64,000 bases of DNA, taken from assembly GCA_964472075.1 (NCBI GenBank), contig CAYYIY010000001.1:150670-214669 (forward strand), given 5' to 3'. Below are positions 3,342 through 57,471 of this stretch, one piece after another. Made by a program: the position numbers and the translations under genes. Source of the stretch: an uncultured bacterium. GTDB lineage: Bacteria; Muiribacteriota; Ozemobacteria; Ozemobacterales; Ozemobacteraceae. The notes below the pieces were generated by a model, which saw only the letters and a list, made by a program, of their open reading frames with translations, had not been told where the DNA came from and made no database searches. Positions within the stretch are counted from its first letter, which is position 1, and every line of letters begins with the position of its first letter.

Positions 3342-3844
3342 GGTTCCTCCGGGCACCGAATCTCGTGGCGACAGAACTCACGACGACCACGAGCATCGAT
3401 GACTGAGAACCCGAACGAAATGAATCCGGGCATGGAGCGTTGAACCGAGAACTCGGACAACGGGCCGCCAAGGATTTTCGACCCACTCATGTCAGCGGAA
3501 TTCATTCGCGACAGGTCAGTCAGCTTCAGCATTCCCGTCTCATCGAGAAAGACCAGCTGCAAACGATACTGACTGTCAAGAAACACGGTCATCGAAGCGG
3601 GTGCATCGTCCTGGTTCGGAAAGACGACTTGCCGGCAATCAGCAATGGTTTCAGCAAATCTCAGATGAGTAAACCGCAGTCGATGGCCCGCTTCCATCCG
3701 CTCCGTGCCCGTCTGCAGCCATCTGTGGTAATGGACAAACACGAAGAAGGTCACGCCCACGACCACGACAAACAGAACAATCCCGATCAGCAGTTCCACC
3801 AGAGTGAAACCGTACTGAGTTCGCGGACGGGAATTCAGACTCAT
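3338..3844 (-). CDS. Prepilin-type N-terminal cleavage/methylation domain protein (minor pseudopilin)
   Basis: Internal start gives MSLNSRPRTQYGFTLVELLIGIVLFVVVVG, the canonical G-F-T-L-x-E prepilin motif followed by a hydrophobic helix. There is a 4-nt ATGA overlap with the upstream gene. Confidence 0.7.
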   Translation of the reverse strand: MSLNSRPRTQYGFTLVELLIGIVLFVVVVGVTFFVFVHYHRWLQTGTERMEAGHRLRFTHLRFAETIADCRQVVFPNQDDAPASMTVFLDSQYRLQLVFLDETGMLKLTDLSRMNSADMSGSKILGGPLSEFSVQRSMPGFISFGFSVIDARGRREFCRHEIRCPEEP

Positions 3845-27059: not shown

Positions 27060-27171
27060 ATCCTATTCCTTTCGTGGTTTTAGAAGAGTGGAATGACAGA
27101 TCTTTGGGGTCATGGTGCGTGAAATTCCCTTCTCCGTCAAGGGATATCTTCCGGGGAAGGAATCTTTTTCG

Positions 27172-27177
27172 TATAAT
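27172..27177 (+). promoter_or_regulatory. Candidate -10 box (TATAAT)
   Basis: Exact TATAAT lies 45 nt upstream of the ATG at 27223, which is preceded by GGAGG. No good -35 was found. Confidence 0.3.
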
Positions 27178-27222
27178 GAGAAATACAGTGCGGTACACAA
27201 CCGCATCTCTGGAGGTATTCGC

Positions 27223-41792: not shown

Positions 41793-42530
41793 CTAGAGAC
41801 GCCGAACACGATACTCAGCGAACATCGCGCATGCCGCCGTCAGCCGCGAGGCATGACGTTCTGCCCGCATCAGGGGTTCAAACCATGACGGCGGCAGAAA
41901 CTCTCGATGCGAGAATCCGCCGGAACACGCATACGAAAGCGGCATCAATCGTTCCACCCGTTCGACACGCAGCGCCGGAAACTCAGCCTGCAGAAGCGTT
42001 CGGTCGCGGTGAAACAGCAGATAAGCCAACGCTCCGTTCGCCCCCGAAAGCGGTCCGGTAGAGGCAAACTCCCATCTCCGCGTATGCGGACGAAACGGCT
42101 CGTGGTGCAAAAAAGAGTAAATGAACCTTGACCAGAGCGAGTTCCAGGGTTCGATCAGGTGTAACACTCCACCCGGTCTCAGGCAGCGAACGACTTCACG
42201 CAGGAATACGCGCGGCCGCGAGAGATGATGCAGCACGTTCAAACCGACGATCGCCTTGAGCGAGCCGGTCTGAAACGGCAACCCCTGGGTCGCGTGCAGA
42301 CGAACGTCGATCGAGTCGAGATCAAGCAGATCGGATCTCACCACGTCAGGCAGCAGCTCCTCAAGAAACCCGCCACCCGAGCCGACTTCGAGCACCGCCC
42401 CCGCGCCTTCCGGTATGCCGGTGAGCAAACGCCGATACCAGTCCGTGTAGATGCTCTTCAGCACCGGTCGCTGCCGAAACAGCATGCGGCGCAGGCGGGT
42501 CACGGAGGGTTGATCAAGTTCGCGGCACAT
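41793..42530 (-). CDS. Class I SAM-dependent methyltransferase
   Basis: VLEVGSGGGFL ... VGLNVLHHL ... LRPGGVL motifs. Start was placed at an internal ATG to avoid overlap with divergent wzm. Confidence 0.65.
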   Translation of the reverse strand: MCRELDQPSVTRLRRMLFRQRPVLKSIYTDWYRRLLTGIPEGAGAVLEVGSGGGFLEELLPDVVRSDLLDLDSIDVRLHATQGLPFQTGSLKAIVGLNVLHHLSRPRVFLREVVRCLRPGGVLHLIEPWNSLWSRFIYSFLHHEPFRPHTRRWEFASTGPLSGANGALAYLLFHRDRTLLQAEFPALRVERVERLMPLSYACSGGFSHREFLPPSWFEPLMRAERHASRLTAACAMFAEYRVRRL

Positions 42531-42605
42531 ACCGATACTATACCATCGGTCGCCAATCGATCGCTCGGCATTGCAGCCGCAGGCAGGCTGCCATACAATA
42601 CGCGC

Positions 42606-43394
42606 ATGTTCACCCCGTTGCTGCAGCACCGACACCTCACCTGGGAACTGGCCAAGCGAGAGTTTCAAGATCGCTTTATCGGTCACATTCTCGGCTGGGT
42701 CTGGGTTGTGCTGCAGCCAGTGTTGTTCATGAGCATACAGATTTTCGTGTTTGCCTGTATCTTTCGCGTTTCACTTGCCGCTTATCCGCATCTTCCCTAT
42801 ACCTATGCCACCTATGTTCTCGCCGGCATGATTCCCTGGTATTACACCCAGGAACTGCTGATGAAATCCTGTCAGGCCGTCTCGAGCCAGGCCGGCCTCG
42901 TCAAGCAGGTGGTGTTTCCGATCGAGGTGCTACCGCTGAAAACCGTGGTCGCCACTTTACTGCCACAGCTCATCGCCATCGGTCTCTTCATGCTGTATAC
43001 CCTGGTGACCTTCGGCGCTCTTTCCTGGACTTATCTGCTGCTGCCTCCGACCGTGCTTCTTCAGAGCCTCTTTCTGTCGGGAATCGCGTGCCTGCTTTCC
43101 GCGATCGGCGTATATGTTCGCGATATACGTGACATCATCCAATCGATGCTGATGGCGGCTCTCTATCTGCTTCCCGTTTTTTATCTTCCCGACATGGTTC
43201 CCGGCATTTTTCGCTACGTTCTCTGGCTCAACCCGTTCAGCTATATGGTCTGGGTGTATCAGGACATCCTGTATTTCGGCTCAATCGCACACCCCGAGGC
43301 ATGGCTGGTGTTCATCATCGAATCTTTCGTCTCGTTCGCCGTTGGTTCCCGGGTGTTTCACAAACTGAAAATCATGTTCGGCAGCCATCTGTAA
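42606..43394 (+). CDS. ABC-2 type polysaccharide export permease (Wzm/TagG-like)
   Basis: Six TM helices and an ABC-2 family pattern. Start is at MFTPLLQHRHL. Confidence 0.8.
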   Translation: MFTPLLQHRHLTWELAKREFQDRFIGHILGWVWVVLQPVLFMSIQIFVFACIFRVSLAAYPHLPYTYATYVLAGMIPWYYTQELLMKSCQAVSSQAGLVKQVVFPIEVLPLKTVVATLLPQLIAIGLFMLYTLVTFGALSWTYLLLPPTVLLQSLFLSGIACLLSAIGVYVRDIRDIIQSMLMAALYLLPVFYLPDMVPGIFRYVLWLNPFSYMVWVYQDILYFGSIAHPEAWLVFIIESFVSFAVGSRVFHKLKIMFGSHL

Positions 43395-44791
43395 TGAGCA
43401 CCGTTCCCATACAGGTTTCCAGCCTCGGAAAGCAGTATCGTCTGTACGAGCATCCATGGGAAATGCTCTCGGAACTGTTGTTCGGCAAAGGCAACGCCCG
43501 CGATTTCTGGGCCTTGCGCGATGTCACTTTTGAGGTACAAGCCGGCGAGGTTTTCGGTATTATCGGTCGCAATGGCGCAGGCAAGAGCACACTTCTGCGT
43601 ATTCTCGCCGGTACTCTCGACCGAACCACCGGAGAGGTCAACGTGTCCGGAAGAGTTTCGGCCATTCTCGAACTGGGCACCGGGTTCCAACCAGACTACA
43701 CCGGGCGTGACAATATTCGCATCGGCGGAATGTGCCTCGGCATGAGTCGCCGAGAGGTTGACGACAAACTTGAATCGATCATCGAGTTCAGTGAATTGCG
43801 TGAATTCATCGATCAACCGTTCCGCACCTATTCTTCCGGCATGCAGGCGCGCCTGACGTTTGCCACGGCCATCAGCGTCATTCCGGACATTCTCATCATC
43901 GACGAAGCGCTCTCTGTCGGAGATGCGCGATTCGCCCGCAAATGTTATGAACACCTCCAGGAGCTGAAGCGACAGAAACGCACGATCCTGATGGTCAGTC
44001 ATGACATGAACTCAATCAACACCTTCTGTGATCGCGCCCTGTTGCTCGAACAGGGAAGAGTGCTCGCCATCGGCGACCCGCGCGATGTCACACACCAGTA
44101 TTACGGCCTGCTCTTCGGCCCGGAATCGTCTGAGACATCTGCGCAAGCGACTCCCACTGTCGACCCGTTACCCGTGTCCTTAACTCACGACGTATCCGAC
44201 CCTCCCGTCGAAGCGCTTCGACCCGGAATACACCAGTCTTCTCGCTGGCTTCCCGAAAATATCCGCACACCAGAGAACTCGGACGAATGGATCGCCGCGG
44301 CGCGACGGCATCTTCAGCTCGAAGCGCGAGCACTGCCCGCTCGTGGATTCGTCGTCGGCGGTGGAGAGGTGCATATTCTCGATGCCGGGGTTCTCGACCT
44401 GCAGGGACAACTCCTTCATTCGCTTCATTCCGGCCAGGATTGTCTGCTCTATTTTCGCGCCATCTTTCTTCAGACTCTGCCGAGAGTCAATGCCGGAATT
44501 GTCCTGCGCAGCACTCGCGGCGTTGATCTGTTCGGCGTGACGAACGAGACGATGGGTTGGGACATTCACGATGTTCCGGAAGGCGCCATCGTCGAGTGCC
44601 GCGCCCGGGTTCGCATGTGGCTGACCAACGGAACCTACTTTCTGACCGTCGGGATCAGTCGCGCTCCCGGGCCGCAATGTGAACTGATCTATGACGCGTA
44701 TGCTTTTGATGTTCTGCCAACCCCCGGCATCTTCACGACATCACTTGTCGACCTGTGCGCACAGTTCGAGGTTGAGGTGCATCGACCATGA
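43394..44791 (+). CDS. ABC transporter ATPase with C-terminal extension (Wzt-like)
   Basis: Walker A GRNGAGKST, signature YSSGMQARL, Walker B ILIIDEALSVGD. A ~200-aa C-terminal domain beyond the NBD resembles O-antigen-terminus-binding Wzt proteins. The ATG overlaps the wzm stop. Confidence 0.8.
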   Translation: MSTVPIQVSSLGKQYRLYEHPWEMLSELLFGKGNARDFWALRDVTFEVQAGEVFGIIGRNGAGKSTLLRILAGTLDRTTGEVNVSGRVSAILELGTGFQPDYTGRDNIRIGGMCLGMSRREVDDKLESIIEFSELREFIDQPFRTYSSGMQARLTFATAISVIPDILIIDEALSVGDARFARKCYEHLQELKRQKRTILMVSHDMNSINTFCDRALLLEQGRVLAIGDPRDVTHQYYGLLFGPESSETSAQATPTVDPLPVSLTHDVSDPPVEALRPGIHQSSRWLPENIRTPENSDEWIAAARRHLQLEARALPARGFVVGGGEVHILDAGVLDLQGQLLHSLHSGQDCLLYFRAIFLQTLPRVNAGIVLRSTRGVDLFGVTNETMGWDIHDVPEGAIVECRARVRMWLTNGTYFLTVGISRAPGPQCELIYDAYAFDVLPTPGIFTTSLVDLCAQFEVEVHRP

Positions 44792-45828
44792 CCGCCTTGC
44801 CTTTCAACGGCGTGTCCGAGTCACGCAACCGAGCGGAACGGATGTTCGAGTCGGTTCCCTGCCCGTTATGCGGCCGGTCAGAAGCGCGACGATTGTTCCG
44901 CCGCCCTGATCACACCTATGAAATGTCCGAGTTTTCCTTTCCCGTAGTGCGCTGCCGATCCTGTTCGATGGTGTATGTGAATCCACGGCCGAAACCGGGA
45001 TATCTCTCTCTGTTCTATCCCAGGGAATTTTTCGGCGTGCAACGGCATCCGCGCGATGTTCTTATCGATCAGTCCGAGTCCATGCAACAGAAATGGCAGT
45101 TGCTGAAGGATCTTCCGCCGGGACGCATTCTTGATATCGGATGTCAGAAGGGGGAGTTTCTCTATTTCATGCAGTGTCGCGGCTGGCGGGGGCAAGGCAT
45201 CGAAATCTCCCCACTGTCGCCCAATCTGTTCAGGCAGGATATTCACTACGGACCTCTCGCTACGGCACCGCTGGAAACCGGGTCCTTCGACGCCGTCACG
45301 TTGTGGGCCGTTCTCGAGCATCTTCTCGAACCTCAGGAAATGCTGCAACGAATTCAACCCCTGCTGAAGCCGAACGGGCGTCTGATTGTCCTGGTCACCA
45401 ACATCTGTAGTTTGCCCGGGCGCTGGATGCGCCACGACGATATTCCGAGGCATCTGTTGCTTTTCTCCCCCCAGACGCTGAAATCCATGCTCGAACGATG
45501 CGGGTGGCAGGTGCAGCGGGTCCACTGCAACCACGTGTTGTTCGGCGGCCGGCATCGCGGCCTGTTCACGTATCTGCTCAAGTGGCTGGCCGGGGAATCC
45601 TTCGCGGACATCGTCGCCCAGAATCGAACCCCTGAGCGCTGGCTCGAGTTCACCACCCTCTTGCACGGCAAACCTTCGCGTCTGGTCGAGTGGGTGGAAT
45701 CCTGGGACAAGAAGCTCACCCCATGGCTGGACCAGCTGATGGACCGCCTCGGCTTCGGCTTCACGCTGATTGCCACCGCGACACCCCAATCGACAGAACG
45801 AATGATCTGTCACGGGAGAATTCGCTGA
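44788..45828 (+). CDS. Class I SAM-dependent methyltransferase with N-terminal CxxC...CxxC zinc ribbon
   Basis: CPLCG...CRSC, then RILDIGCQKGEFL ... TLWAVLEHL ... KPNGRLIV. Overlaps wzt by 4 nt. Confidence 0.7.
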   Translation: MTALPFNGVSESRNRAERMFESVPCPLCGRSEARRLFRRPDHTYEMSEFSFPVVRCRSCSMVYVNPRPKPGYLSLFYPREFFGVQRHPRDVLIDQSESMQQKWQLLKDLPPGRILDIGCQKGEFLYFMQCRGWRGQGIEISPLSPNLFRQDIHYGPLATAPLETGSFDAVTLWAVLEHLLEPQEMLQRIQPLLKPNGRLIVLVTNICSLPGRWMRHDDIPRHLLLFSPQTLKSMLERCGWQVQRVHCNHVLFGGRHRGLFTYLLKWLAGESFADIVAQNRTPERWLEFTTLLHGKPSRLVEWVESWDKKLTPWLDQLMDRLGFGFTLIATATPQSTERMICHGRIR

Positions 45829-47795
45829 TGTGCGGCATCTGCGGCTGGGTCAACACGGATCAGGCACAGCCGGCTCCTGTTGAGGTGCTCCGTCGCATGC
45901 TGGGTCGCCTCCGGCACCGCGGCCCGGCCTCGGGCGGCCTCTGGAAAGCGAAGCACGTGGCTCTGGGTCATGCCCGGCTGCCGATCATCGATCTGAGCTC
46001 GCAGGCCGCGCAGCCTATCGTGAGCGAAGACGGCAACTGCGTTCTCGTCTGCAACGGCGAGATCTACAACTTCGAGGATCTGCGCATCGATCTCGAGAAG
46101 CGCGGCCATCAGTTTCGGTCTCGATCCGATTCCGAAGTCATCCTGCATCTGTGGGAAGAAAAAGGTGAGAGTTGTGTTCATGATCTGATCGGCATGTTCG
46201 CGTTCGCCATCTGGGACGAACGCCGGGAGATGCTGTTTCTCGCCCGCGACCGATTCGGCAAGAAACCCCTGGTCTACGCGCGGTATCCGGATCACTTTGT
46301 CTTCGGTTCGGAGATCAAGGCTCTTCAGTGTGACCCAGGGTTTCGTCCGGCGGTCAGCGAGCGCGGTCTGTATCTGTATCTGGCCTACCAGTCGGTGCCG
46401 GCACCCTACTCGGCGTTCGATCGCGTCGAGAAGCTGCCGCCCGCCCATTGTCTGACGGTTCGCCGGGGACGGTGTGATCTGCGCGAATACTGGCGCCTGA
46501 GCCATGAACCGCGATTTTCCGATGCTCCCGAGCCGCCGGCCGCGATCGTCGCCGAACTGCAGGAGCGTCTGAAGCAGTCGGTGAAACGTCGCATTCGCGC
46601 CGACGTACCGGTCGGAGCCATGCTGTCGGGGGGAATCGACTCATCGCTGGTCGTGTCGATCATCGCCAGGCAGACCGATCAACCGCTGTCGACGTTCACC
46701 GTCGGGTTTCCGATCGCCGAGTATGACGAGCGCCCCTGGGCTCGAGAAGTCGCCGGCCAATTACACACCAATCATTTCGAGTTACTGGCCGGCCCTGAAA
46801 TCATCGATCTTCTTCCAGACATTGTCTGGTACTATAACGAACCGTTCGCCGACTCATCAGCCCTGCCGACCTGGCTTGTCTGTCGCCTGGCGCGTCAGCA
46901 CGTTACGGTGGCCCTTTCCGGAGACGGCGGCGACGAGTGTTTTGCCGGATACCCGCGCTACCAGAACATCGGTGAGCACGCGCTCGATCAGGGGTTTCCA
47001 TCAATCTGGGAGCGCTGGCACCGGCGTTTTCGTGACTGGCGGGGATTCGTCACCGGGCGTTCGTGGACCGCCGACCTGCGCCGCCTGGCGGATCTGCGGC
47101 AGGACCGACTGCTCTACTACTACCGACTGGCTCACTTCCACGAGGGATACCAGACCCGCCTTCTGACTCCCGAGTTCCGCCGCCGTCTGGGCGATCTGGT
47201 TGCGGTCGATCATCTGCTCGAGCGCTTCCGACGCAGTCGAGCGCCGACCTTTCTCGACACGCTCACTGAGATCGATCTGGGGTTGTACCTGCCCGACACC
47301 CTGATGACCAAGACGGACGTTGCCTCGATGGCGCATGCGCTCGAGGTTCGGTCTCCCTTTCTCGACCATACTCTGGTCGAGTTCTGCGCCCGATTTCCGT
47401 CTCACTGGAAGCTGAAGGACGGGTGCCAGGGCAAGTGGATTCTGCGTTGCGCCGCCGCTGATCTGTTGCCAGAGTCGATACTGAATCGAAAAAAGATGGG
47501 GTTCGGCATTCCGATGGACCACTGGTTCAGAAAGGAATGGCGGGACGTCGCTCATGACGCCCTGCTTTCCGGCCGCCTGATCGCACGCGGCTACTTCGAA
47601 CCCACCTATCTAAGATCACTCTTCGAGAGGCACCAACAGGGCGAAAGCTGGCAGTATCTGATCTGGAATCTCATCATGTTCGAGCATTGGCACCGTCGAT
47701 TCATCGATGGAGACGCCCCGCCGATGCCCGAACCGGAACTCACAATAACCGAAGTGAAAAGTGACCGCAGAGAATCCGGAGATCCTCCCCACTGA
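45828..47795 (+). CDS. Asparagine synthase (glutamine-hydrolysing) family amidotransferase
   Basis: N-terminal MCGICGW Ntn-Cys, NGEIYN and SGGIDSS PP-loop motif. Length is 655 aa. The ATG overlaps the upstream stop. Confidence 0.8.
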   Translation: MCGICGWVNTDQAQPAPVEVLRRMLGRLRHRGPASGGLWKAKHVALGHARLPIIDLSSQAAQPIVSEDGNCVLVCNGEIYNFEDLRIDLEKRGHQFRSRSDSEVILHLWEEKGESCVHDLIGMFAFAIWDERREMLFLARDRFGKKPLVYARYPDHFVFGSEIKALQCDPGFRPAVSERGLYLYLAYQSVPAPYSAFDRVEKLPPAHCLTVRRGRCDLREYWRLSHEPRFSDAPEPPAAIVAELQERLKQSVKRRIRADVPVGAMLSGGIDSSLVVSIIARQTDQPLSTFTVGFPIAEYDERPWAREVAGQLHTNHFELLAGPEIIDLLPDIVWYYNEPFADSSALPTWLVCRLARQHVTVALSGDGGDECFAGYPRYQNIGEHALDQGFPSIWERWHRRFRDWRGFVTGRSWTADLRRLADLRQDRLLYYYRLAHFHEGYQTRLLTPEFRRRLGDLVAVDHLLERFRRSRAPTFLDTLTEIDLGLYLPDTLMTKTDVASMAHALEVRSPFLDHTLVEFCARFPSHWKLKDGCQGKWILRCAAADLLPESILNRKKMGFGIPMDHWFRKEWRDVAHDALLSGRLIARGYFEPTYLRSLFERHQQGESWQYLIWNLIMFEHWHRRFIDGDAPPMPEPELTITEVKSDRRESGDPPH

Positions 47796-49161
47796 GTCGC
47801 TGAGCCAGCAACGGGTTTGCTGATTGAAAGCGCGGAATAAAGTCTTTCAGATAGGACTGTTCCGCAAAAAAGTTTGGTTCGAAACTCGTAACTTCCCATT
47901 GATGCTCGCGGAACAATTGTTCCAGTTCGCCGGCGCGGACCCGATTGCCGCATTCGCCGTTCCGCGACTCAAACTCCCCGGCAAACGACTCGGCATCGAG
48001 CAGTAGAAACTCAAGCGGTCGGTCCATGTCACGATGATCACGGAAATCGACCTGATGAAAGGCGAGCGCACCCGGCCTGGCCACCCTGGTCATCTCGCGA
48101 CAGGCAGCCCACGTATCGACACAATGTTCGAGCACCGCGTTCGAGAGAAAGAGATCGACGGAATGGTAGGGGACCGTTCGCAGGTTCTCGAGCGGGTGCG
48201 CAAACGGTTGAATCTCAGGGGCCTGCCTGTGGGCCAGAAACGTCTCGAGCACCGTGGTCGGCACACCGGGAAAAGCGCTCGGCATCGCCTGCAGCAGGGT
48301 CGCATAGAAACGCGAATGGTACTCTTCGACCCACGTGCAGAGAAACCGGTCGACCACGAACACCGTGGCCCCATGGCAGGCGAGGATCAGGGAACTGCCA
48401 AGATTGATGCCCGGCCCGATCTCCATGACCGTCTTTCCGCGAAGACCCTCGCCACCGCCCGGCAGTCGACTGAGATACTGTCGGGCCACGCGAATCGCGT
48501 GATCGACATCCTGTCTCAAGGCCTGCGGCGAGCAATCACGCTCACGCTGATTCACCGGCAAACCGGTTGCCGATAACAGGCCTGCTGACTTCATTCCAGG
48601 CGTCACCATTCTGGACATTCTCTCGGGCAGAACATTCCAGAGCCAGCGAAAGGCGCGCCGGAACGGCGGCACCAGGCAGACCACGTAGATCAGCCAGTAC
48701 AAAGCGGCCAGAAAGCGATTCCGCAGATTCCAATGGGAGACGTTGTGCAGCGGATGTTCGTCAGGCGGACGGAAGCGGTAGGAATACGTGCGCCCGTTGG
48801 TGTTGGGGTCCGAGTTGTCGCTGGTCGAAAACATGAGAAGGCGACCCCAGTGAGAGTACGAGCCACCACCATGTTGGCGAATGATCTCATGCAGACTATG
48901 AGGTGGTCCAAGTTCCACTCCATCTTCCATGAGGATCAGCGTCGACCGTTGATTGAACTCAGGCGTGTCCGCCAGCGCCGCCAGCTCGGGCATCTGCAGG
49001 CCCCAGCAGCGATCGATCTCGCGGAAGAACGGTCCCTCGAGTGGCACCGGATGGGCATGCTCCGCCCAGGTGCCCTTCTTCCAGGCTTCGAGCCACTCCT
49101 GTGCTTGCGACAGCAATTGCCTCGGCGACCAGGCAGGAGGCAGCGAATGGGGTCGTTTCAT
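47740..49161 (-). CDS. Class I methyltransferase-fold protein carrying an N-terminal unclassified ~55-aa domain
   Basis: VMEIGPGINLG ... VDLFLSNAVLEH methyltransferase motifs. The N-terminal region LMEDGVELGPPHSLHEIIRQHGGGSYSHWGRLLMFSTSDNSDPNTNGRTYSY recurs in two neighbouring genes. ATGA overlap with the upstream GT4 gene. Confidence 0.55.
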   Translation of the reverse strand: MKRPHSLPPAWSPRQLLSQAQEWLEAWKKGTWAEHAHPVPLEGPFFREIDRCWGLQMPELAALADTPEFNQRSTLILMEDGVELGPPHSLHEIIRQHGGGSYSHWGRLLMFSTSDNSDPNTNGRTYSYRFRPPDEHPLHNVSHWNLRNRFLAALYWLIYVVCLVPPFRRAFRWLWNVLPERMSRMVTPGMKSAGLLSATGLPVNQRERDCSPQALRQDVDHAIRVARQYLSRLPGGGEGLRGKTVMEIGPGINLGSSLILACHGATVFVVDRFLCTWVEEYHSRFYATLLQAMPSAFPGVPTTVLETFLAHRQAPEIQPFAHPLENLRTVPYHSVDLFLSNAVLEHCVDTWAACREMTRVARPGALAFHQVDFRDHRDMDRPLEFLLLDAESFAGEFESRNGECGNRVRAGELEQLFREHQWEVTSFEPNFFAEQSYLKDFIPRFQSANPLLAQRLSGEDLRILCGHFSLRLL

Positions 49162-50288
49162 GGCTGTTGCAGGCGCGCCAGCAAACGATCGTATAGAGCG
49201 GAATACTGGGCGGCAATATAATCCATGGAGTAGAGGCTTTCGACCGTGCGACGGGCACGCCGCCCCCATTCCTCGGCCTGCTCGGGTCGGCGCATGACAT
49301 CGACGATCGCGGTGCAAAGGGCTTCTGGGGATTCCGGCGGAATCAGGCGACCGTTCCAGCCATCGACGAGCAGATCGCTCGTGCCGCTGACCCGGGTGGC
49401 AATAATCGGCAGTTCCATGGACATCGCCTCGAGCAGCGCATTTGAAAGACCCTCGCCGCGACTGGGCAGGATGAACAGATCATGAGTGTCGAGAATGGCT
49501 CGCGGCTCATCGCGAAAGTCATGAAAGATCACTCGGTCCTCGACGCCGCATGCCGCCGAAAGGCGCCGGAAATCGTATTCCGGATAGTCCACTCCGTACA
49601 GATGCAGCTCGCAGGTCGGGATTCCCGATTCCTGCCTCAGAAGCGCCATCGCTCGGATAGCGACGTCGATGCCTTTCTGCGGATGTCGACGACCGACCAG
49701 ACACAGACGCCACGGTCGCCGCTCTTTATCAGGCTTTGCCCAACGAGCAGAGCGCTGAAACCGACTCGTGTCGATGCCGTTCGGCAGACACAGGATCCGG
49801 TCGGTTGGGAACTGCCAGGTCCGGAGTTCCTGCTCGATCTCGCGGCTGATGGCAACGATGGCGTCTGCCTGACGCAGGATCGGCAGGCCGAACGCGGAGA
49901 GCGGCAGTCGTGAAAACTGGTGCAGATCACCGTAGGTACCGGCGCAACCCAGCTTGATCAGGCAGGGTTTTCTCAGCAGTTGCGCGGCCAGCACGGCAAC
50001 GACCGCATGCCCGAACGCCTGATGGACGTGAAGAATGTCATAGGATCGGCGATATCGCACGAGAAAGGCGAACTGATTCCAGCCGCTGAAGGGCCGATAC
50101 CCAAGCGCGAACGGAACCCGCGTGATGCGGAAGCCGCTCCAGTTTTCGACCGGCAGGGCGTCGGGAGTTCTCTGCTGGGTGAGCACGTGAACGTCATGTC
50201 CGCGCTGGGCAAGCCGTTCGGCCAGGCGCTCGGCCTGCACTTCGGCTCCCCCCGGACGCCAGGGTCGAAACTGATGGATGATCATCAT
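49158..50288 (-). CDS. Glycosyltransferase family 4 (GT-B)
   Basis: N-terminal MMIIHQFRPWRPGGAEV with a C-terminal EGLSNALLEAMSMELPIIATRVSG (E-x7-E-like) motif. Confidence 0.8.
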   Translation of the reverse strand: MMIIHQFRPWRPGGAEVQAERLAERLAQRGHDVHVLTQQRTPDALPVENWSGFRITRVPFALGYRPFSGWNQFAFLVRYRRSYDILHVHQAFGHAVVAVLAAQLLRKPCLIKLGCAGTYGDLHQFSRLPLSAFGLPILRQADAIVAISREIEQELRTWQFPTDRILCLPNGIDTSRFQRSARWAKPDKERRPWRLCLVGRRHPQKGIDVAIRAMALLRQESGIPTCELHLYGVDYPEYDFRRLSAACGVEDRVIFHDFRDEPRAILDTHDLFILPSRGEGLSNALLEAMSMELPIIATRVSGTSDLLVDGWNGRLIPPESPEALCTAIVDVMRRPEQAEEWGRRARRTVESLYSMDYIAAQYSALYDRLLARLQQP

Positions 50289-50325
50289 CACCCTGGGCCT
50301 GCCTGCGCCGTTTCTCACGCCTTTC

Positions 50326-53300
50326 CTACCTCGACACTTCCTCAATCTGCGACCAGCCGCGCGGGGCATATTCTCTCACACTCTTCAGACGACAGGCAAG
50401 AAAAGCCCCGTAGTCGAAGGCACGCAGATATTCGACAATTGCAGCGCAGGTCAGACTCGGGCCGTGCGTGACTGCATCGCGCAAACGACGATTGGCTATT
50501 TCCCACGTGTATTGCAGCCAGCGGGGTTTGAGCGTGACCAGGGGCAGGCAATACGTTGTGGAAGCGGCACCGCGCAGCCAGTCAACCACGCGGCAACCAT
50601 CTGTGGACCTCAGACCGAACACCCCGAGCGACGGATCGACAAACCACCAACGATCCCCCTCACTCAGCTTGATCTCCGCAACCCAGTGCTGAGTATGACG
50701 GCTGTATTGAGCCGCTGGAGAAAGCTCGTAGTCCAGATGCAACAGTCGAATGGATAGTCCGAGATCGTTCAGGATGTCAGCCAGCAAAAAGGTCTCCTGA
50801 TAACAATACAACTCGAGAGGAGCACTCGCCTGAAACAGTCTTTCGCGAACTTGTGAACGAGCCAGATCTCCCTCGTCGTGATGAAAGATCTCATGCGTCC
50901 GGGTTCCGAAGTCGACACGACGACTGTACCAGTCACAAAACTCGAGAAGTCTCTGCATTTCAGAATTGTTTGAATTCAGAAACACACGCAGAGGAGATGG
51001 CAGACTGTCGGCGTCGATCAATCGCACATACGGATTCATTTCCTGCCGAGGTGAGCGCATCAGAGGCCGCGAGAGTTGAGTCCGGGCCTCCGTGGCCACA
51101 CTCATGACAGGGAGATAGAACCAGACAGCATTCCCGGTGGTGCTATCCATGCCGACCCCAAGCAAGGCAGGGAGCGGGGTTGATACCGACGCCGCATTGC
51201 CGACAGCCGGCAACCACGACTCAGCCGGCCAGGCATGAAACACCGACGAAGGAACCACTGGAAGCAGCGGGTCGGGTTTCAGATCATCAGGCCACGTCAC
51301 AACCTTCACGCCGGTGACGGTCGACGTCCGAAGCATGATCGGCGTCGATCGCTCGGTGACGTGCTCTCCGGCAAACAATCGGTGACCGAGCGCCGGACCG
51401 CACAGTGCAGCGAGCATGAACAGACCGAGGAAAGTGATGCCCTCCCCGCCTTTTCCATCAAGCGATCGGCGCGGGTCTCGCTGAAACGGAGAAAACATCC
51501 AGAGACTGAGCACTCCGGCCATCAAAGGCCATGTCGCGGCCAGGACACGCCACCCGCCATCGAGGAAGATGAACGGCACAAACGCCAGCATGCATCCCAG
51601 AAGCATTGTCCAGAAAACAATCTCACGTCGACACTCCCGCATCGCAAGGGCGAATCCGAACCATAGACCAGTACCAATGGCGAGCAGCAAGACAAAACGA
51701 GAAGAGATCACCTCACCGATTGGCAGTGTCGCCAGAAGAATGGTCCGCAGAAACAGAAACAGATCGCCCATGAATTCTTTTCCTGAGCGGCGCAGATACT
51801 CCAGTGCCAGATCAGGCTGTCGCCGCAGAGATTCACAGCCACGTTCCCAGAGGAATTGCGCCCGTTCTTTTTCGGAGGGTCTTTTTTCCAGTTCCGACTT
51901 GTACTTTTCACGAACCTGCACCCAGGTCAGATTTTCAGCCATACCGCAGAAGGTGTATCCAGCGTTGGAATGCGGCAGATTGTCGGCACCACCGTAAACC
52001 CGAACGAGGAGCAACGGAAACAGTAGTCCCATCATGGTTCCTGCCAGCAGGCCGAGAAGCATTCTGCGAGTCCAGTCTCCCCGCCACGTGCTCCAGACAG
52101 CGTATAGAACGGGACCGACCAGCACCGTTATCGCGCCAACGCGTGCCTGCATTGCCAACGCCAGCCCCAGACCCGCGGCGAACTGCGCCAACGTTGAAAC
52201 CGACCAGGTTCCATTCAACAGCAGGCGCAGAGCGACACACCCGAGAGTCATTCCCAGAGCCTCTGAAAGACAGGTTCCCATAAAGCACTGCGCGTACGCG
52301 AGACACAGCGCAACACATCCGATACCCGTCCAGACTCCGTACCGGCGGCGCAGCCCGTCAGCCAGCCAGAAAACGCTTACTGCCAGCAGCACCACTTGCA
52401 TCAGTGTCGCCAGTTCCAGTCTCAGACCCGTCACCGCCAGACGAGCGGCAAGAAACGCGGCATTCAGCGGCCGGCGTACGTTCCACTCGTTCAAAGTGCC
52501 CTGCGCAATCAACTGATGCGCTCCGTTCAGATAACTGCGCGCATCACTGAGGGGGATATACCCCATAAAGGCGAAAGAGTACAGATCGTACCGGTGCATC
52601 GGCTCGGCGATCCCGCTCCATTGCCGAAACAGCGGCAACAGAAACAGCAGGACAGCCAGGATCAGACCCCAGCGGGCCATGCGGCGGCTCAAACCGCGCT
52701 CAGCCTTGATCCAGGCGGCTTGCTCCGCTCGCGGGCGCAGCCACCTGATCGCCCAGGCGCACCCGACCCCGCCCATCGCCCAGAGCCACAACCACCCCGG
52801 AATCTGACTGACCGTGAGGTACAGCAGATGCCGACCTCTGATCCATGCCCAGGCCTGCGTTGGAGCACAAGGAAACACCAGCGGCACGGCCAGAAACAGC
52901 ACCAGTCCTCCGATCGCGCCTGCCGCGAAAAGTGCCGGCATCAACCGACAGAATAACGGCCCCACAAGAGGAAGCGCGGTAAAGAACGCTGCCGCCAGAC
53001 TCAGCCAAAGCCCGACCGTCGCCGTTCTTTCGCTCCAGCCCGGAAGCTGTGGGCAACTTACTTCATATACCCGACCGTTGGTGCGTGGGTCACTTCCGTC
53101 CGAGCTGGAGAAAATCAGATCCTCGTTCCAATGCGAGTATCTGCCACCTCCTTTTGAGCGGATGTCGGCATGCAGGCTGTGCGCCATCGACAGCGAACGC
53201 CCGCTCTCAAAGAGTTCCAGGCGACTCCAGCGGGGAAAGCGTGCGCTGTCTCCCGTTCCTGTCATGGATGCGATACCACGATAGATAAACGCCTGCGAAT

Positions 53301-53442
53301 CGGTGGTTTCCGGTCTTATCTGTGACACATCGAGGGTGAGTCGAACCCTCGTGACCCGCTCCGGATCATACTGAAAACGCATACAGATGGTCGCCAGCAC
53401 CAGTAACAGGACAACCAGCGCAACGCGTGTCGGAACGTTCAT
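50326..53442 (-). CDS. Large polytopic membrane protein: N-terminal unclassified domain, >12 TM helices, C-terminal transglutaminase-like domain
   Basis: The N-terminal TM is followed by ...FESGRSLSMAHSLHADIRSKGGGRYSHWNEDLIFSSSDGSDPRTNGRVYEV. A long hydrophobic core follows. The C-terminus CYQETFLLADILNDLGLSIRLLH...HTQHWVAEI...WWFVDPS fits the Cys-His-Asp transglutaminase-like pattern. Confidence 0.6.
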   Translation of the reverse strand: MNVPTRVALVVLLLVLATICMRFQYDPERVTRVRLTLDVSQIRPETTDSQAFIYRGIASMTGTGDSARFPRWSRLELFESGRSLSMAHSLHADIRSKGGGRYSHWNEDLIFSSSDGSDPRTNGRVYEVSCPQLPGWSERTATVGLWLSLAAAFFTALPLVGPLFCRLMPALFAAGAIGGLVLFLAVPLVFPCAPTQAWAWIRGRHLLYLTVSQIPGWLWLWAMGGVGCAWAIRWLRPRAEQAAWIKAERGLSRRMARWGLILAVLLFLLPLFRQWSGIAEPMHRYDLYSFAFMGYIPLSDARSYLNGAHQLIAQGTLNEWNVRRPLNAAFLAARLAVTGLRLELATLMQVVLLAVSVFWLADGLRRRYGVWTGIGCVALCLAYAQCFMGTCLSEALGMTLGCVALRLLLNGTWSVSTLAQFAAGLGLALAMQARVGAITVLVGPVLYAVWSTWRGDWTRRMLLGLLAGTMMGLLFPLLLVRVYGGADNLPHSNAGYTFCGMAENLTWVQVREKYKSELEKRPSEKERAQFLWERGCESLRRQPDLALEYLRRSGKEFMGDLFLFLRTILLATLPIGEVISSRFVLLLAIGTGLWFGFALAMRECRREIVFWTMLLGCMLAFVPFIFLDGGWRVLAATWPLMAGVLSLWMFSPFQRDPRRSLDGKGGEGITFLGLFMLAALCGPALGHRLFAGEHVTERSTPIMLRTSTVTGVKVVTWPDDLKPDPLLPVVPSSVFHAWPAESWLPAVGNAASVSTPLPALLGVGMDSTTGNAVWFYLPVMSVATEARTQLSRPLMRSPRQEMNPYVRLIDADSLPSPLRVFLNSNNSEMQRLLEFCDWYSRRVDFGTRTHEIFHHDEGDLARSQVRERLFQASAPLELYCYQETFLLADILNDLGLSIRLLHLDYELSPAAQYSRHTQHWVAEIKLSEGDRWWFVDPSLGVFGLRSTDGCRVVDWLRGAASTTYCLPLVTLKPRWLQYTWEIANRRLRDAVTHGPSLTCAAIVEYLRAFDYGAFLACRLKSVREYAPRGWSQIEEVSR

Positions 53443-55487
53443 GCGCGACGTTGCAGAAGTGTTGCAGGAACGCGGATCATGTCGACCTCAGGCCAAACCT
53501 GCACAGTATAACGACGACCGTTGCGATTCGGATCCGTGTTGTCTGAGGTCGAGAAGAACAATCGCTCGTTCCAGTGCGAAAATCGTCCGAGTCCCTGCTG
53601 CATGATATCTTGATGTACAGCGTGTGCGACACCGATCGCTCGTCCGTTTTCGAAAATCTGTAATCTCGATTGAAACGGGGCGGCCATCGAGTCACCCGAC
53701 GTCGGCAACCTGGGCAGACCGGTCACCCAGCAATGTCCGTGCTCCTGTGAGAACGGTGCCGCGAGCGTCCAGGTCGAAAGCCCCGGATCCGTCGTGAGTT
53801 CATTCGCGAACAACCTGATGCTCAGCCGCATCTCGTGACAGCCGGCAGACGACGGCAACAGGCGCGGCGGCGCAAGAAACGCCTGTTGCAGCAGATTTCG
53901 CAGATCAGCGGTCAAAACCCAATAGAGCCGACCCTCGCCGGCAGTCGCCCGCGAGAGCGGAATCGCGAGCATCTGCTCTCCGGGGGTTTTCAATGGCAGA
54001 TAAGCAACCGGCTCGGCTTCGCGCAAGAGTACCAGACCGGGTTCCGCCAGCAGAGAAAGTAATTGTTCAGGGTCTTCGCACTGAACCAGCAAAGGAACCG
54101 TCTGCGCATATTCGCTCTCTGCCTGAGTCAACAATTGTCCTATATGCTTGATCATGAAACGAGGATCAATACGCCGAACCGCCGGCACTCGTTCGTTCAC
54201 CGCACGCTCGGCAATCTGTCCGGCGCACGCGAGCGCTTCGCGCCATCCACGCGTCTCGTCGGCGAAGTGCGAAAACAGATTGATCTGTTCGGTTGGCGGA
54301 TACACGGTCACCGGGCTCCAGTTCACGGAAAGGTCCAGGTCCAGAGCCTGCTGCAGATTGTCAGGCAGTTCGCGAACGGTCGATTTCATGACCAGCGCTC
54401 CCACGGACAGACGCCGATGCGGCAGGCGCTGGCGTCTCTGCAGTGCTTGAAGGGTCTCGAGAACCTGATCGAGTTCCGCTCCTCGTCTCAGTCGGGCGTA
54501 TGTTCGCGGCTGAAAACTGTCGACCGAGATCGAGATGTTCCAGCGTGAAAACTTCTCGAGCCAATCGCGCTCGCGCTCGCGAATCAAGACCCCGTTCGAG
54601 GTGAACCCGAAGGTGAGATTCGGATTGTCGTCAGGCCGAAACCGTTCGACGAACCCAATGAACTCTGGATCAACCCAGGGTTCACCGCCATTCCAGGTGA
54701 GATGCAGTAACGTAGGAATCAGCGCCAGTATCTGTTTGCCAAGTCCGGGAACCGCTCTTTGAGAGTTCCAGCGCGCATAGTTCTGACTGCACATCGGACA
54801 GTGCAGGTTGCACTCGAGCGATGATACCCAGGCCAGGTGCGAAGGCAACCCGTCCACCGAGGTTTTCCCTTGCCGCCAGGCTGATTCGAGTTTCGCAAGG
54901 TTCACTGATGAAGCGTGACTCGGATCGCCGCGGTCGAGCACGAACGTGCGCCCGGAGACCGGCAGTGAGACGACATACTTTCGACGATTGGTCAACGGAC
55001 TGGTACCGTCTGAGGTCGAGAAGAACAGAGCCCCCGTATCACTCAGATAGAAAGCCCCGCCGTCACGTCTGATCGCTTCGATACTCTGGAGTCCGGGGCC
55101 AAGTGCTCTATCATCCTCAATCAATACAGCTTTCGACAGATCGGTTTCATCAATTTCGAAAGGTTCAGGAAGCTGGTGGAAATAGCAGTGCCCCCCGTGA
55201 TGCCGCCACCCTGCCAGACCCTCGAACGGAGGCGGTTCGCCGCCGCTCCATTGCGTCGACAGGCAGGTTGCGCATGGGTATCCGGCGAGCCGTCCGTGCG
55301 CCAGATCCTCACGCAACCGGTGCCAGGGTTCACCGTTCCAGATCTCGGCCAGAGATGCCTCTCGCGCTTGACCGAGCGGAAGAGCGTCTCCACCATAACC
55401 GCGCCAGAAGCAGCAGGGGCTGACTTCTCCGGAGAGGTCGATCACCATCTGCTGCCATGGATATGCGCATCTGGGTTGCTTGACCAT
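53439..55487 (-). CDS. Radical SAM enzyme with N-terminal SPASM/twitch-like Cys module and two copies of the unclassified domain
   Basis: ECNLHCPMC (CxxxCxxC) and WNGGEPWVD (GGEP) radical SAM core. The N-terminus VSPCCFWRGYGGDALPLGQAREASLAEIWNGEPWHRLRE...PCATC resembles the C-terminal half of SPASM domains. ATGA overlap with the downstream gene. The track ORF begins with TTG at 55715, and the internal ATG was preferred. Confidence 0.65.
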   Translation of the reverse strand: MVKQPRCAYPWQQMVIDLSGEVSPCCFWRGYGGDALPLGQAREASLAEIWNGEPWHRLREDLAHGRLAGYPCATCLSTQWSGGEPPPFEGLAGWRHHGGHCYFHQLPEPFEIDETDLSKAVLIEDDRALGPGLQSIEAIRRDGGAFYLSDTGALFFSTSDGTSPLTNRRKYVVSLPVSGRTFVLDRGDPSHASSVNLAKLESAWRQGKTSVDGLPSHLAWVSSLECNLHCPMCSQNYARWNSQRAVPGLGKQILALIPTLLHLTWNGGEPWVDPEFIGFVERFRPDDNPNLTFGFTSNGVLIRERERDWLEKFSRWNISISVDSFQPRTYARLRRGAELDQVLETLQALQRRQRLPHRRLSVGALVMKSTVRELPDNLQQALDLDLSVNWSPVTVYPPTEQINLFSHFADETRGWREALACAGQIAERAVNERVPAVRRIDPRFMIKHIGQLLTQAESEYAQTVPLLVQCEDPEQLLSLLAEPGLVLLREAEPVAYLPLKTPGEQMLAIPLSRATAGEGRLYWVLTADLRNLLQQAFLAPPRLLPSSAGCHEMRLSIRLFANELTTDPGLSTWTLAAPFSQEHGHCWVTGLPRLPTSGDSMAAPFQSRLQIFENGRAIGVAHAVHQDIMQQGLGRFSHWNERLFFSTSDNTDPNRNGRRYTVQVWPEVDMIRVPATLLQRRA

Positions 55488-55518
55488 GGCTGTTTCGAAA
55501 AGTGACCTGCCCTGTCTT

Positions 55519-57471
55519 TCAGGGTCGCGACAGTGGCAACGACGGTCCTTCCCAGAAGCGGCCGATGTCTCGCTGGTACAAAGAGAGAATGATGCGACGG
55601 GAACCCCCGCGAGCGTGCAGCAGACGCAACAACGCGTAGGTGTCCTGCCGCAGGCGCGGTCCGCTGCAGGCCTGCTGCAGTTGTTGCTCAAGTTTTTCGA
55701 CCATCGGCGGCTCAACTTTGCCGCTCGCCATGGCGATGAAACGTCGCAGGTTCAGTCGATCGGAACTCAGATGCAGGATCGTATCGACCAGCCCCTGAAA
55801 TCGTCCGAGCAGATCGAGATCCGGACCCTCGATCAGATGAGGGCGAGGCCAGGTCAGATTGCCGAAATGAGCGGAAATGAAGACGGTAAACTGCTGCGGG
55901 ATCGCCTGCTGACGCAGCTGGCCCAGATACTCAACGGTCAGATCGTCCGGGTTCATCGACTCGATGAATACGACCTTTCCAGCAGGACCGGGCGGTAGAA
56001 GTTTGAGTAACTCAACGATGTCGTCAGGGACGGTGAGTCGCACGGCACGATCACTGCCGCGCACATAGAGCGAATCGGGAAACACGCCGCAGGTCGTTTC
56101 GAGCGTCTGTTGCCACTTCTGACGAGCCGCCTGAGCTTCCGCCCCGTTGCCGACCGTGCGCATGATGTTTTCCGCCGTCGATTGTCGAGTGACCCAGGCG
56201 GTGGCCCGCAAAGTCAGCTCGGCCATTGTGTGTTCACGTGACAGGTACAATACCGGAAGACGACCAGCAGTCTGCAAGGCAAAAGCCTGCATCCAGGCCG
56301 CTTTTCCTTCTTCGCGACCCCCGACGATCAGGTGCAGGCCGCGCTGCACAAACCCACCACCTAAAGCTTTGCCGAGTTCGACGCCGGGGGCAACCACCAC
56401 GGAAGCATGTGACGGCAGTCCGGAAACGAGTTCGGGCGCTTCGAGTTTCAGGGGACGGAACTGTCGAATTTCGCGCGTCGACAGGGTGGGTAGGGGCGCG
56501 GCCGGCTGAGACAAAGGAGCCGCTGTCGAAGGAAGAGAAGCCGGAGTTGCCACGGGGGCCGGTGCTGAAGCTCGCGTTTCTCCCACGCTTGCCGCCAGAC
56601 CGGCAAACACTTCCTTCAGTTTCTGAACCGGCTCTTTGGTGGATTCGAGAAACTTGATCCAGGTGCGAACTTCCTTGAGACACTCGTCCAGAGTTCTCTT
56701 TTTGCCGCAGTAATCGGAGAAAGCGGCGGGGCCATAGGCAAAATGGGACTGGCTGACCCCCACTTTCGGGCGGTGCAGCCCAGGGTGAATACTCCCCGGC
56801 ACGAGAACGGGAGTTGTCGCACTCGCCATCTCAGGCAGGATGGTTCGGTCCGTGGTTTTCATCAGGCGGCGATCACCACGTTTGATGCCGGCGATGCGCC
56901 CGATCAACGCCCGATACATGCGTCCGAGTTGCCGATGCCCGCCGCAGCCGAACACACCCGGGTGAATCTCGATCGCAATTTCATCGGGCGTGGCCAGCAG
57001 GAACATGGCATCGTTACTGATGCCGAGCGTTTTCAGACTTTCGATGAATCGGGTCGTATCGTCGTAGACTGCCTGAAATCCGAAGACTTCCTGATTCGGA
57101 CGATAAGGCCTGCCGTCGACCACCACATGAGTGTGTTCCCTGGCAAGCAGCTGCAGAAGCTCATCCTGACCCGGCAGTTCCGGTACTCTTTTCCCCTCGA
57201 CTTCGAGATGGATCTGCAGCCCTTCATAGCCGCATTCCTCGAGTAACAGATCAGAGGCGCGACGAATCGCATGCACCACGGTCATCGGCCCGGAAAGGAC
57301 GATGCTTTCTTCGTTGAAAGCCTGTTGCAGCTGTTCCGCATTTTCGGTTTCCTCGAAAAAGTAGGCGGAACGGTACAAGCCCTCAGGAACGGCTTTCAGC
57401 GCATCGCTCAGCCCTTTCAGGGGTTTGATGCCCGAAGCAACTCCCGACGCGGAAAGTATCAGCGCATTCAT
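55519..57471 (-). CDS. Hypothetical protein with C-terminal RecA/KaiC-superfamily domain (degenerate Walker A)
   Basis: The C-terminal GLHLIVGGREEGKAAWMQAFALQ...LYLSREHTMAELTLR resembles KaiC/DnaB-C/RadA folds, but Walker A is GGREEGKA. There is a Pro/Ala-rich linker, and the N-terminal ~270 aa are unrecognised. Confidence 0.45.
   Translation of the reverse strand: MNALILSASGVASGIKPLKGLSDALKAVPEGLYRSAYFFEETENAEQLQQAFNEESIVLSGPMTVVHAIRRASDLLLEECGYEGLQIHLEVEGKRVPELPGQDELLQLLAREHTHVVVDGRPYRPNQEVFGFQAVYDDTTRFIESLKTLGISNDAMFLLATPDEIAIEIHPGVFGCGGHRQLGRMYRALIGRIAGIKRGDRRLMKTTDRTILPEMASATTPVLVPGSIHPGLHRPKVGVSQSHFAYGPAAFSDYCGKKRTLDECLKEVRTWIKFLESTKEPVQKLKEVFAGLAASVGETRASAPAPVATPASLPSTAAPLSQPAAPLPTLSTREIRQFRPLKLEAPELVSGLPSHASVVVAPGVELGKALGGGFVQRGLHLIVGGREEGKAAWMQAFALQTAGRLPVLYLSREHTMAELTLRATAWVTRQSTAENIMRTVGNGAEAQAARQKWQQTLETTCGVFPDSLYVRGSDRAVRLTVPDDIVELLKLLPPGPAGKVVFIESMNPDDLTVEYLGQLRQQAIPQQFTVFISAHFGNLTWPRPHLIEGPDLDLLGRFQGLVDTILHLSSDRLNLRRFIAMASGKVEPPMVEKLEQQLQQACSGPRLRQDTYALLRLLHARGGSRRIILSLYQRDIGRFWEGPSLPLSRP

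Follow-up and report, generated by a model that had tools for sequence, protein, structure and literature searches.

Locus and gene structure

A 64,000-nucleotide (nt) stretch of contig CAYYIY010000001.1 from an uncultured bacterium of the Ozemobacteraceae (the window) contains an ABC-transporter-dependent (Wzm/Wzt) surface-polysaccharide cluster, and within that cluster lies the gene for the large membrane protein considered here (the target). The gene belongs to a minus-strand operon that encodes, in order, a 742-residue polytopic protein, an alkaline phosphatase, a 650-residue protein, a radical SAM enzyme, the target, a GT4 glycosyltransferase and a methyltransferase-like protein. An original prediction, made from the DNA letters alone, had described the target as a 1038-residue product combining an unclassified domain, a "glycan-type" core of more than 12 helices and a transglutaminase-like C terminus. 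Its coordinates and length are confirmed, and the strand, which it did not give, is minus. The 1038-codon open reading frame (ORF) runs without interruption, and a protein identical to its product (P0001) is recorded from one NCBI contig of 241,639 bp. The target is a single gene, and its translational coupling to the radical SAM gene upstream is likewise supported: the target start codon overlaps the radical SAM stop codon in the sequence gcgcATGAacg. GC content and its third-position counterpart (GC3) are alike across all parts of the gene, and nothing points to recent insertion of foreign DNA.

Hydropathy and the secondary structure of an AlphaFold2 (AF2) model together give approximately 15 transmembrane (TM) helices, in keeping with the predicted helix count. 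The model, built from a 30-sequence alignment, has a mean predicted local distance difference test score (pLDDT) of 65 and a predicted TM-score of 0.61. A signal-anchor helix is followed by a small beta module, three further TM helices, an amphipathic and positively charged stretch (residues 238-256), a polytopic core and a long soluble tail (Table 1).

A GT-C-like core

Structural modeling gives good support to a GT-C glycosyltransferase fold for the polytopic core, which represents a rare GT-C family of known fold covered by no curated model. Residues 257-690 are well modeled (pLDDT mostly 85-97), and the fold superposes on solved GT-C enzymes. In a Foldseek comparison with the PDB, the top matches to the core are all GT-C proteins (STT3, AglB, PglB, ALG9, ArnT, EmbC and AftD), with probabilities of 0.72-1.00. 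The best of these is STT3 (7oci_F; E 0.025, probability 1.00), and others include 6s7t_A, AglB (3waj), ALG9 (9s6s) and PglB (3rce). MFS transporters appear in the same comparison with probabilities below 0.2.

An acidic residue that opens the first external loop is a hallmark of GT-C active sites, as in PglB, ArnT and PMT. The target places a conserved aspartate, D300, at this point, in the first external loop (residues 276-341, following the first core helix; a further external region of ~100 residues spans 484-581). D300 lies within an SDAxxY motif followed by RRPL; alignments A2 and A3 show no exception to it, and at least 90% of the sequences in A4 have it. Together with R324, E394, R434, N493 and R632, it is also invariant in 14 homologues. 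Two homologues add weak matches to GT-C-type Pfam models, one to PMT_2 (E 0.0015) and another to PTPS_related (E 0.0016). The predicted glycan-type core is supported by its fold in the Foldseek comparison, its invariant external-loop aspartate and its setting in a polysaccharide cluster.

Several observations weigh against this assignment. The Foldseek E-values are modest, at 0.025-0.1, with TM-scores of ~0.3; neither the target nor its isolated core matches any Pfam or NCBIfam model, GT-C families included; and a PDB sequence search with the full protein and a PDB profile search with the core were both empty. The modest E-values leave room for a core that is a glycan polymerase, ligase or transporter with only superficial GT-C likeness, rather than a transferase of the PglB/ArnT type. 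The homologues of the core also reside in polysaccharide clusters, with Wzm/Wzt in one context and MurJ-type flippases in two, and the flippase contexts, in which no Wzy-type polymerase is seen within ±10 kb, would suit such a protein, as would the lack of a GT2/GtrA donor-synthesis pair in the window. Like Wzy and WaaL (Wzy_C, PF04932), the target is a polytopic protein of a surface-glycan cluster, and those enzymes act on exported undecaprenyl-diphosphate-linked glycans. Against a polymerase, ligase or transporter stand the wide separation of GT-C from transporter probabilities, the fit of the invariant aspartate and conserved arginines to the GT-C pattern, the fact that structural matches fall in the GT-C_A group rather than among WaaL or SEDS-type proteins, and the presence of GT2+GtrA pairs beside one homologue (P0004). 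The core matches neither the Wzy_C model nor any other Pfam model. We therefore regard a polymerase, ligase or transporter as improbable and retain the GT-C assignment.

Comparison with characterized GT-C enzymes underscores both kinship and distance. The target shares with PglB/AglB/STT3 and other GT-C_A enzymes (ArnT, ALG9, EmbC and AftD) a polytopic, N-in core with an acidic residue opening the first external loop, a large C-terminal domain, predicted to be extracytoplasmic, and a place in a glycan biosynthesis cluster. Unlike these enzymes, it belongs to no curated GT-C family by sequence, displays no WWD-type motif, and has four additional helices at its N terminus as well as a beta module inserted among them. 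PglB and ArnT end in C-terminal domains to which that of the target bears no relation. The family is also very rare, with ~25 proteins found among 5.8 billion clusters; its other members end in a different C-terminal domain of ~130 residues with two near-invariant cysteines, to which the target tail has no detectable relation.

The C-terminal domain

The predicted transglutaminase-like domain had been placed in the last ~150 residues. The soluble part of the tail is in fact ~348 residues long, and the Cys-His-Asp pattern is confined to ~90 of them (approximately residues 858-945). The strings on which the prediction drew (GLSIRLLH, HTQHWVAEI and WWFVDPS) are all present in the translation, with C880 in LELYCYQE, H919 in QHWVAEI and D936 in FVDPS. 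On visual inspection, HWVAEI...WWFVDPS is similar to the transglutaminase-like signature HxWxE...DP(T/S). Profile searches point elsewhere. The transglutaminase (PF01841), BTLCP (PF06035) and TgpA-type models give no match at E≤10 to the full protein, to its last 352 or 199 residues, to the 88-residue core segment, or to the orthologue described below; no other cysteine-peptidase model matches the C-terminal domain even at that threshold, and NCBIfam and PHROGs have no match for it. PDB sequence and profile searches with the C-terminal profile and the 88-residue fragment are empty, and Smith-Waterman alignment to the human TG2 core gives a non-significant z of 0.9.

The sole family signal of the tail is to arylamine N-acetyltransferases (NATs; Acetyltransf_2, PF00797), and it falls below the curated gathering cut-off of 22.8 bits. 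The model scores 18.0 bits (E 0.0027) against the whole 352-residue tail, 19.3 bits (E 0.001) against the last 199 residues and 22.0 bits (E 1.6e-4) against the 88-residue core. Ten reversed or shuffled decoy sequences reached at best E 0.14 and ≤12.8 bits against the same model. All three matches span profile positions 48-107, ~60 of 240, and the full three-domain NAT architecture, which occupies those ~240 positions, is not found in the tail. A hidden Markov model (HMM) built from five NATs (four PDB-derived chains and E. coli NhoA) sets C880, H919 and D936 exactly in its three catalytic columns, those of Cys, His and Asp. Smith-Waterman alignment of the tail with three NATs gives z 5.6-6.6, with 0, 0 and 1 of 2000 shuffles reaching the observed score; the orthologue gives z 3.1-3.7.

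The likeness extends to local detail. NATs (PF00797; E. coli NhoA, Salmonella NAT 1E2T, and amide synthases such as GdmF) share the Cys-His-Asp order of the target, with spacings of 38/15 compared to 39/17, and a local motif, YC(F/Y)(E/Q)...L..LG(F/L).(V/I)R.L, is common to NATs and the target tail. Two AF2 runs, both at pLDDT <50 in this region, agree on a helix (876-893) and three strands (897-906, 916-927 and 930-935), which would place the cysteine near the helix start, the histidine in the second strand and the aspartate at the end of the third, the order of a papain-like fold. Residues ~858-945 probably form a minimal papain/transglutaminase/NAT-like core, and we consider the underlying superfamily signal somewhat more apt to be real than spurious.

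Acetyltransf_2 and Transglut_core (PF01841) are grouped together under "Acetyltransferases" in a classification of the papain-like superfamily, which also includes TgpA, a bacterial inner-membrane protein with a Cys-His-Asp domain, in Transglut_core (PMC10318531). Because the two families share this superfamily, the transglutaminase-like description would be right in a broad sense if the signal is real; in that sense it is plausible but unproven. What stands of it is the order and spacing of Cys, His and Asp, all three kept in the orthologue; what falls is any significant match to a transglutaminase or BTLCP HMM, to the PDB or to TG2, a search of the last 199 residues having yielded only sub-threshold PF00797. 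There are also differences from NATs themselves, which are soluble, cytoplasmic acetyl-CoA enzymes, whereas the target domain is part of a membrane protein, as a fusion, and is predicted to be periplasmic. A membrane-attached Cys-His-Asp domain has bacterial precedent in TgpA of P. aeruginosa (PDB 6G49; PF01841).

The distribution of the domain is extremely narrow. A word-indexed search returned a single relative, P0049, a partial sequence 69% identical to the target and labelled Candidatus Ozemobacteraceae. HMMER, run exhaustively with a profile over 1.84 billion representative proteins, yielded no further relative at E≤0.001, and a scan of GTDB genomes and JGI metagenomes found none besides P0049 or its contig. 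The P0049 sequence starts within the last TM helix, and after it come GT4, methyltransferase and AsnB genes as in the window, which indicates that the fusion is kept in that relative. Five independent assemblies of the orthologue (L001-L005; from ENA, NCBI and JGI) break at the same point within this helix, suggesting a repeat or strain-variable region just upstream.

These data also accommodate a tail that is a non-catalytic periplasmic domain, serving in acceptor binding, oligomerization or regulation, in which the triad and NAT match are coincidental or a remnant of an inactivated fold. GT-C enzymes such as PglB and ArnT commonly carry non-catalytic periplasmic domains at this end. Much of the evidence that weighs against a catalytic tail fits this alternative: no PF00797 score attains the curated cut-off; searched alone, the orthologue fragment matches no Pfam model, PF00797 included; in hhalign, the C-terminal profile of two sequences aligns with NhoA or the five-NAT alignment over 24-28 columns around the cysteine with a probability of 4-6%; and homologues end with the orthologue. 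Conservation of the triad is based on that one sequence, whose 69% identity means that it carries little information, and many other blocks of the tail are as conserved as those of the triad. In the full-length AF2 model pLDDT is <50 over residues 691-1038; the domain modeled alone has a pLDDT of 33.7, and Foldseek of that model returns noise. A non-catalytic domain accounts less readily for Pfam E-values (0.001-0.003) well outside the decoy range, for the coincidence of all three NAT catalytic columns with C880, H919 and D936, and for a predicted secondary-structure order that fits a papain-like core. It is an appreciable alternative, though a clearly less probable one than a papain-like tail.

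Topology

The topology of the target is inferred from hydropathy, charged loops and homologue TM counts. Family-consensus hydropathy yields 11 core helices after a cytoplasmic loop at residues 233-257. Under this 11-helix model, the K/R-rich loops 233-257, 361-369, 453-460, 602-607 and 651-665 are all cytoplasmic and a conserved DGGxR motif is external; a 12-helix model flips the last two of these loops, such that only the 11-helix model keeps every K/R-rich short loop in the cytoplasm. For this reason the C-terminal domain quite probably faces the periplasm. The transglutaminase domain of TgpA also faces the periplasm; its membrane part is, to our knowledge, not known as a GT-C core.

One segment complicates this arrangement. 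Residues 557-575 are, in the target alone, hydrophobic enough for a twelfth core helix (Kyte-Doolittle 1.9; AF2 extends a long helix over 543-572), in which case the C terminus would be cytoplasmic. The tail could then be a genuine NAT-type acyltransferase, with acetyl-CoA or another thioester as the donor for N- or O-acylation of the lipid-linked glycan ahead of export. Its closest family signal is indeed to NATs rather than transglutaminases, NAT-fold enzymes use thioester donors, and Wzm/Wzt pathways build and tailor their polymer in the cytoplasm. Yet the segment is hydrophilic in homologues, and twelve helices would put the RECRRE and QRDPRRSLDGK loops outside and DGGxR inside, contrary to the positive-inside rule. 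Because the profile match is limited to positions 48-107 of 240, the acetyl-CoA-binding parts of a NAT are also undetected. A cytoplasmic acyltransferase is accordingly an unlikely account, and the periplasmic placement of the tail is preferred.

The N-terminal module can be placed by similar means. Exactly two TM helices separate it from the SDAxxY loop in five homologues, which puts module and active-site loop together in the periplasm in these membrane proteins. A cytoplasmic module, suggested by arginines after TM1 and by the presence of the module in radical SAM and methyltransferase proteins, was rejected on the homologue TM counts. Topology prediction, which the original prediction had proposed as a check, places both module and C-terminal domain in the periplasm.

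A module shared within the cluster

The unclassified domain of the original prediction is real, corresponds approximately to residues 30-135 and recurs in the radical SAM and methyltransferase-like ORFs. Its length varies between ~70 and 105 residues among the copies in these three proteins. The consensus reads LxLFEDGxxLGPAHSxHxDIRxxGxGRYSHWxxxLxFSxSDNSDPRTNGRxY, and the match set contains 70 instances in 48 proteins. Pfam, PHROG and PDB searches all came back empty for it. In other proteins the module occurs in 1-5 copies, with up to five in tandem, fused to polytopic cores or to radical SAM, pectate lyase, GDSL or He_PIG domains. Its presence in radical SAM and methyltransferase proteins that are presumably cytoplasmic is awkward for a periplasmic module and counts against that part of the assignment. 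The module is probably a shared recognition element for the same glycan and appears to serve on either side of the membrane.

Genomic context

Features of the target and of its neighbors are collected in Table 1.

Table 1. Coordinates of the target gene, its parts and neighboring genes (positions in the window)
Feature	Position	Strand	Residues	Basis or remark
Whole target ORF	50326..53442	minus	1038 aa + stop	ORF call and translation
ATGA start/stop overlap	53439..53442	minus		target ATG 53442-53440; radical SAM TGA 53441-53439
TM1, predicted signal-anchor helix	53371..53430	minus	5-24	hydropathy and AF2
N-terminal beta module, predicted periplasmic	53038..53355	minus	~30-135 (~105 aa)	AF2, pLDDT 85-95
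Three extra TM helices between module and core	52738..53037	minus	~136-235	hydropathy and AF2, low-to-medium pLDDT
Predicted GT-C-fold core, ~11 TM helices	51373..52731	minus	~238-690	AF2, Foldseek and homologues
Codon of D300, candidate catalytic acid/base, first external loop, SDAxxY	52543..52545	minus	300	alignments
C-terminal soluble domain, lineage-specific, predicted periplasmic	50329..51372	minus	691-1038	
Putative NAT/transglutaminase-like core	50608..50871	minus	~858-945	sub-threshold PF00797 match
Candidate triad codon, Cys	50803-50805	minus	C880	
Candidate triad codon, His	50686-50688	minus	H919	
Candidate triad codon, Asp	50635-50637	minus	D936	
Radical SAM gene upstream, N-terminal SPASM/twitch	53439..55487	minus		probable start M77 of long ORF
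Module copies in radical SAM protein (two)	54957-55142 and 53496-53726	minus		
GT4 glycosyltransferase gene downstream	49158..50315	minus		start probably beyond target stop
Methyltransferase-like gene	47740..49161	minus		probable start M53
Module copy in methyltransferase-like protein (one)	48769-48987	minus		
Convergent part: Wzm (ABC2_membrane), Wzt (ABC_tran + Wzt_C), methyltransferase, AsnB-like amidotransferase	42225..47795	plus		
AsnB-like glutamine amidotransferase gene	45690-47795	plus		
742-aa polytopic protein, operon head	58996-61224	minus		
650-aa ORF	55519-57471	minus		

The radical SAM protein matches SPASM (6.7e-13) and then Radical_SAM (2.5e-11). Its long ORF (53439-55715, minus strand) is N_Twi_rSAM-like, at 98 bits compared to a cut-off of 170, and the likely start at M77 (ATG at 55487) lies 31 nt past the stop of the preceding ORF. 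On the other side of the target, the longest GT4 ORF (49158-50369, minus strand) shares 44 nt with the target. Its counterparts on the orthologous contigs begin 8-40 nt past the stop, suggesting that the true GT4 start here is a GTG near 50315 or an ATG near 50288.

An AsnB-like gene, such as the one in the convergent part, adjoins a core-family member in all five contexts examined (L001, L006, L008, L012 and the contig of P0006), and it may form a conserved functional pairing with the GT-C-like core family.

The 742-residue protein at the head of the operon has ~9 hydrophobic segments and a weak match to the Leptospira LA_3751/LA_3752 putative glycosyltransferase family; phmmer detects no relation between it and the target. 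The 650-residue ORF belongs to no Pfam family and shows a faint RadA/Sms-like match (E 8.6e-4) around a degenerate P-loop-like stretch at residues 364-425. Outside the glycan cluster, three long ORFs have no Pfam match at E≤1e-4: 10115-12850 (minus, 911 residues), 27112-29292 (plus, 726 residues) and 1575-3356 (minus, 593 residues).

Proposed mechanism

Taken as a whole, the target is read here as a periplasm-facing GT-C_A-type glycosyltransferase of an uncurated family, encoded in a Wzm/Wzt cluster and bearing periplasmic accessory parts, with a papain-like core in its tail, an interpretation in which we place slightly more belief than doubt. The data themselves show the gene structure, the domain layout, the likeness to GT-C folds, the genomic context and the rarity of the family; beyond these, we infer the mechanism, including any activity of the tail and the identity of catalytic residues. 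By analogy to other GT-C enzymes, the core would accept, on the periplasmic face of the inner membrane, a sugar or glycan that the Wzm/Wzt pathway supplies on polyprenyl phosphate and would pass it to an acceptor, with the invariant D300 as the key acidic residue and the conserved R324, R434 and R632 presumably acting with it at the active site. GT2+GtrA pairs are the usual suppliers of polyprenyl-phosphate sugars to periplasmic GT-C enzymes, and those beside homologue P0004 provide the sole indirect support for use of such a donor.

The module and tail would flank the core as periplasmic accessory parts, the 348-residue tail of this lineage standing in place of the ~130-residue domain with which other family members end. 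The thioester donors on which NAT-fold enzymes normally draw are absent from the periplasm, a consideration that weighs against an active tail in that compartment. If the tail is both active and periplasmic, acetyl-CoA would not be used and its substrates would be pre-existing amide or ester bonds. Reaction would then proceed through an acyl-cysteine intermediate, resolved by hydrolysis or transamidation.

A more elaborate scheme makes the target a bifunctional periplasmic machine, in which the GT-C core transfers exported glycan, the Cys-His-Asp domain carries out energy-independent transamidation that links the polysaccharide to an envelope amine, and the module directs all enzymes of the pathway, cytoplasmic and periplasmic alike, to one glycan. 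The acyl donor in this case could be a carboxamide that the AsnB-like amidotransferase had introduced in the cytoplasm, and the amine might reside on protein, peptidoglycan or another chain. We give this scheme little credence.

Implications

A literature search for the combination found no description of a GT-C core fused to a papain-like domain. The tail domain is confined to two known sequences, and its putative catalytic role is a testable hypothesis rather than a finding. If the overall interpretation is correct, the target defines a rare family of GT-C glycosyltransferases outside all curated models, and one small uncharacterized module would be common to the membrane glycosyltransferase, radical SAM enzyme and methyltransferase of a single pathway. 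In that case, an acyl-transfer or amidase step that depends on a cysteine may also take place where this ABC-transporter-dependent polysaccharide pathway, in a poorly studied candidate lineage, reaches the periplasm.

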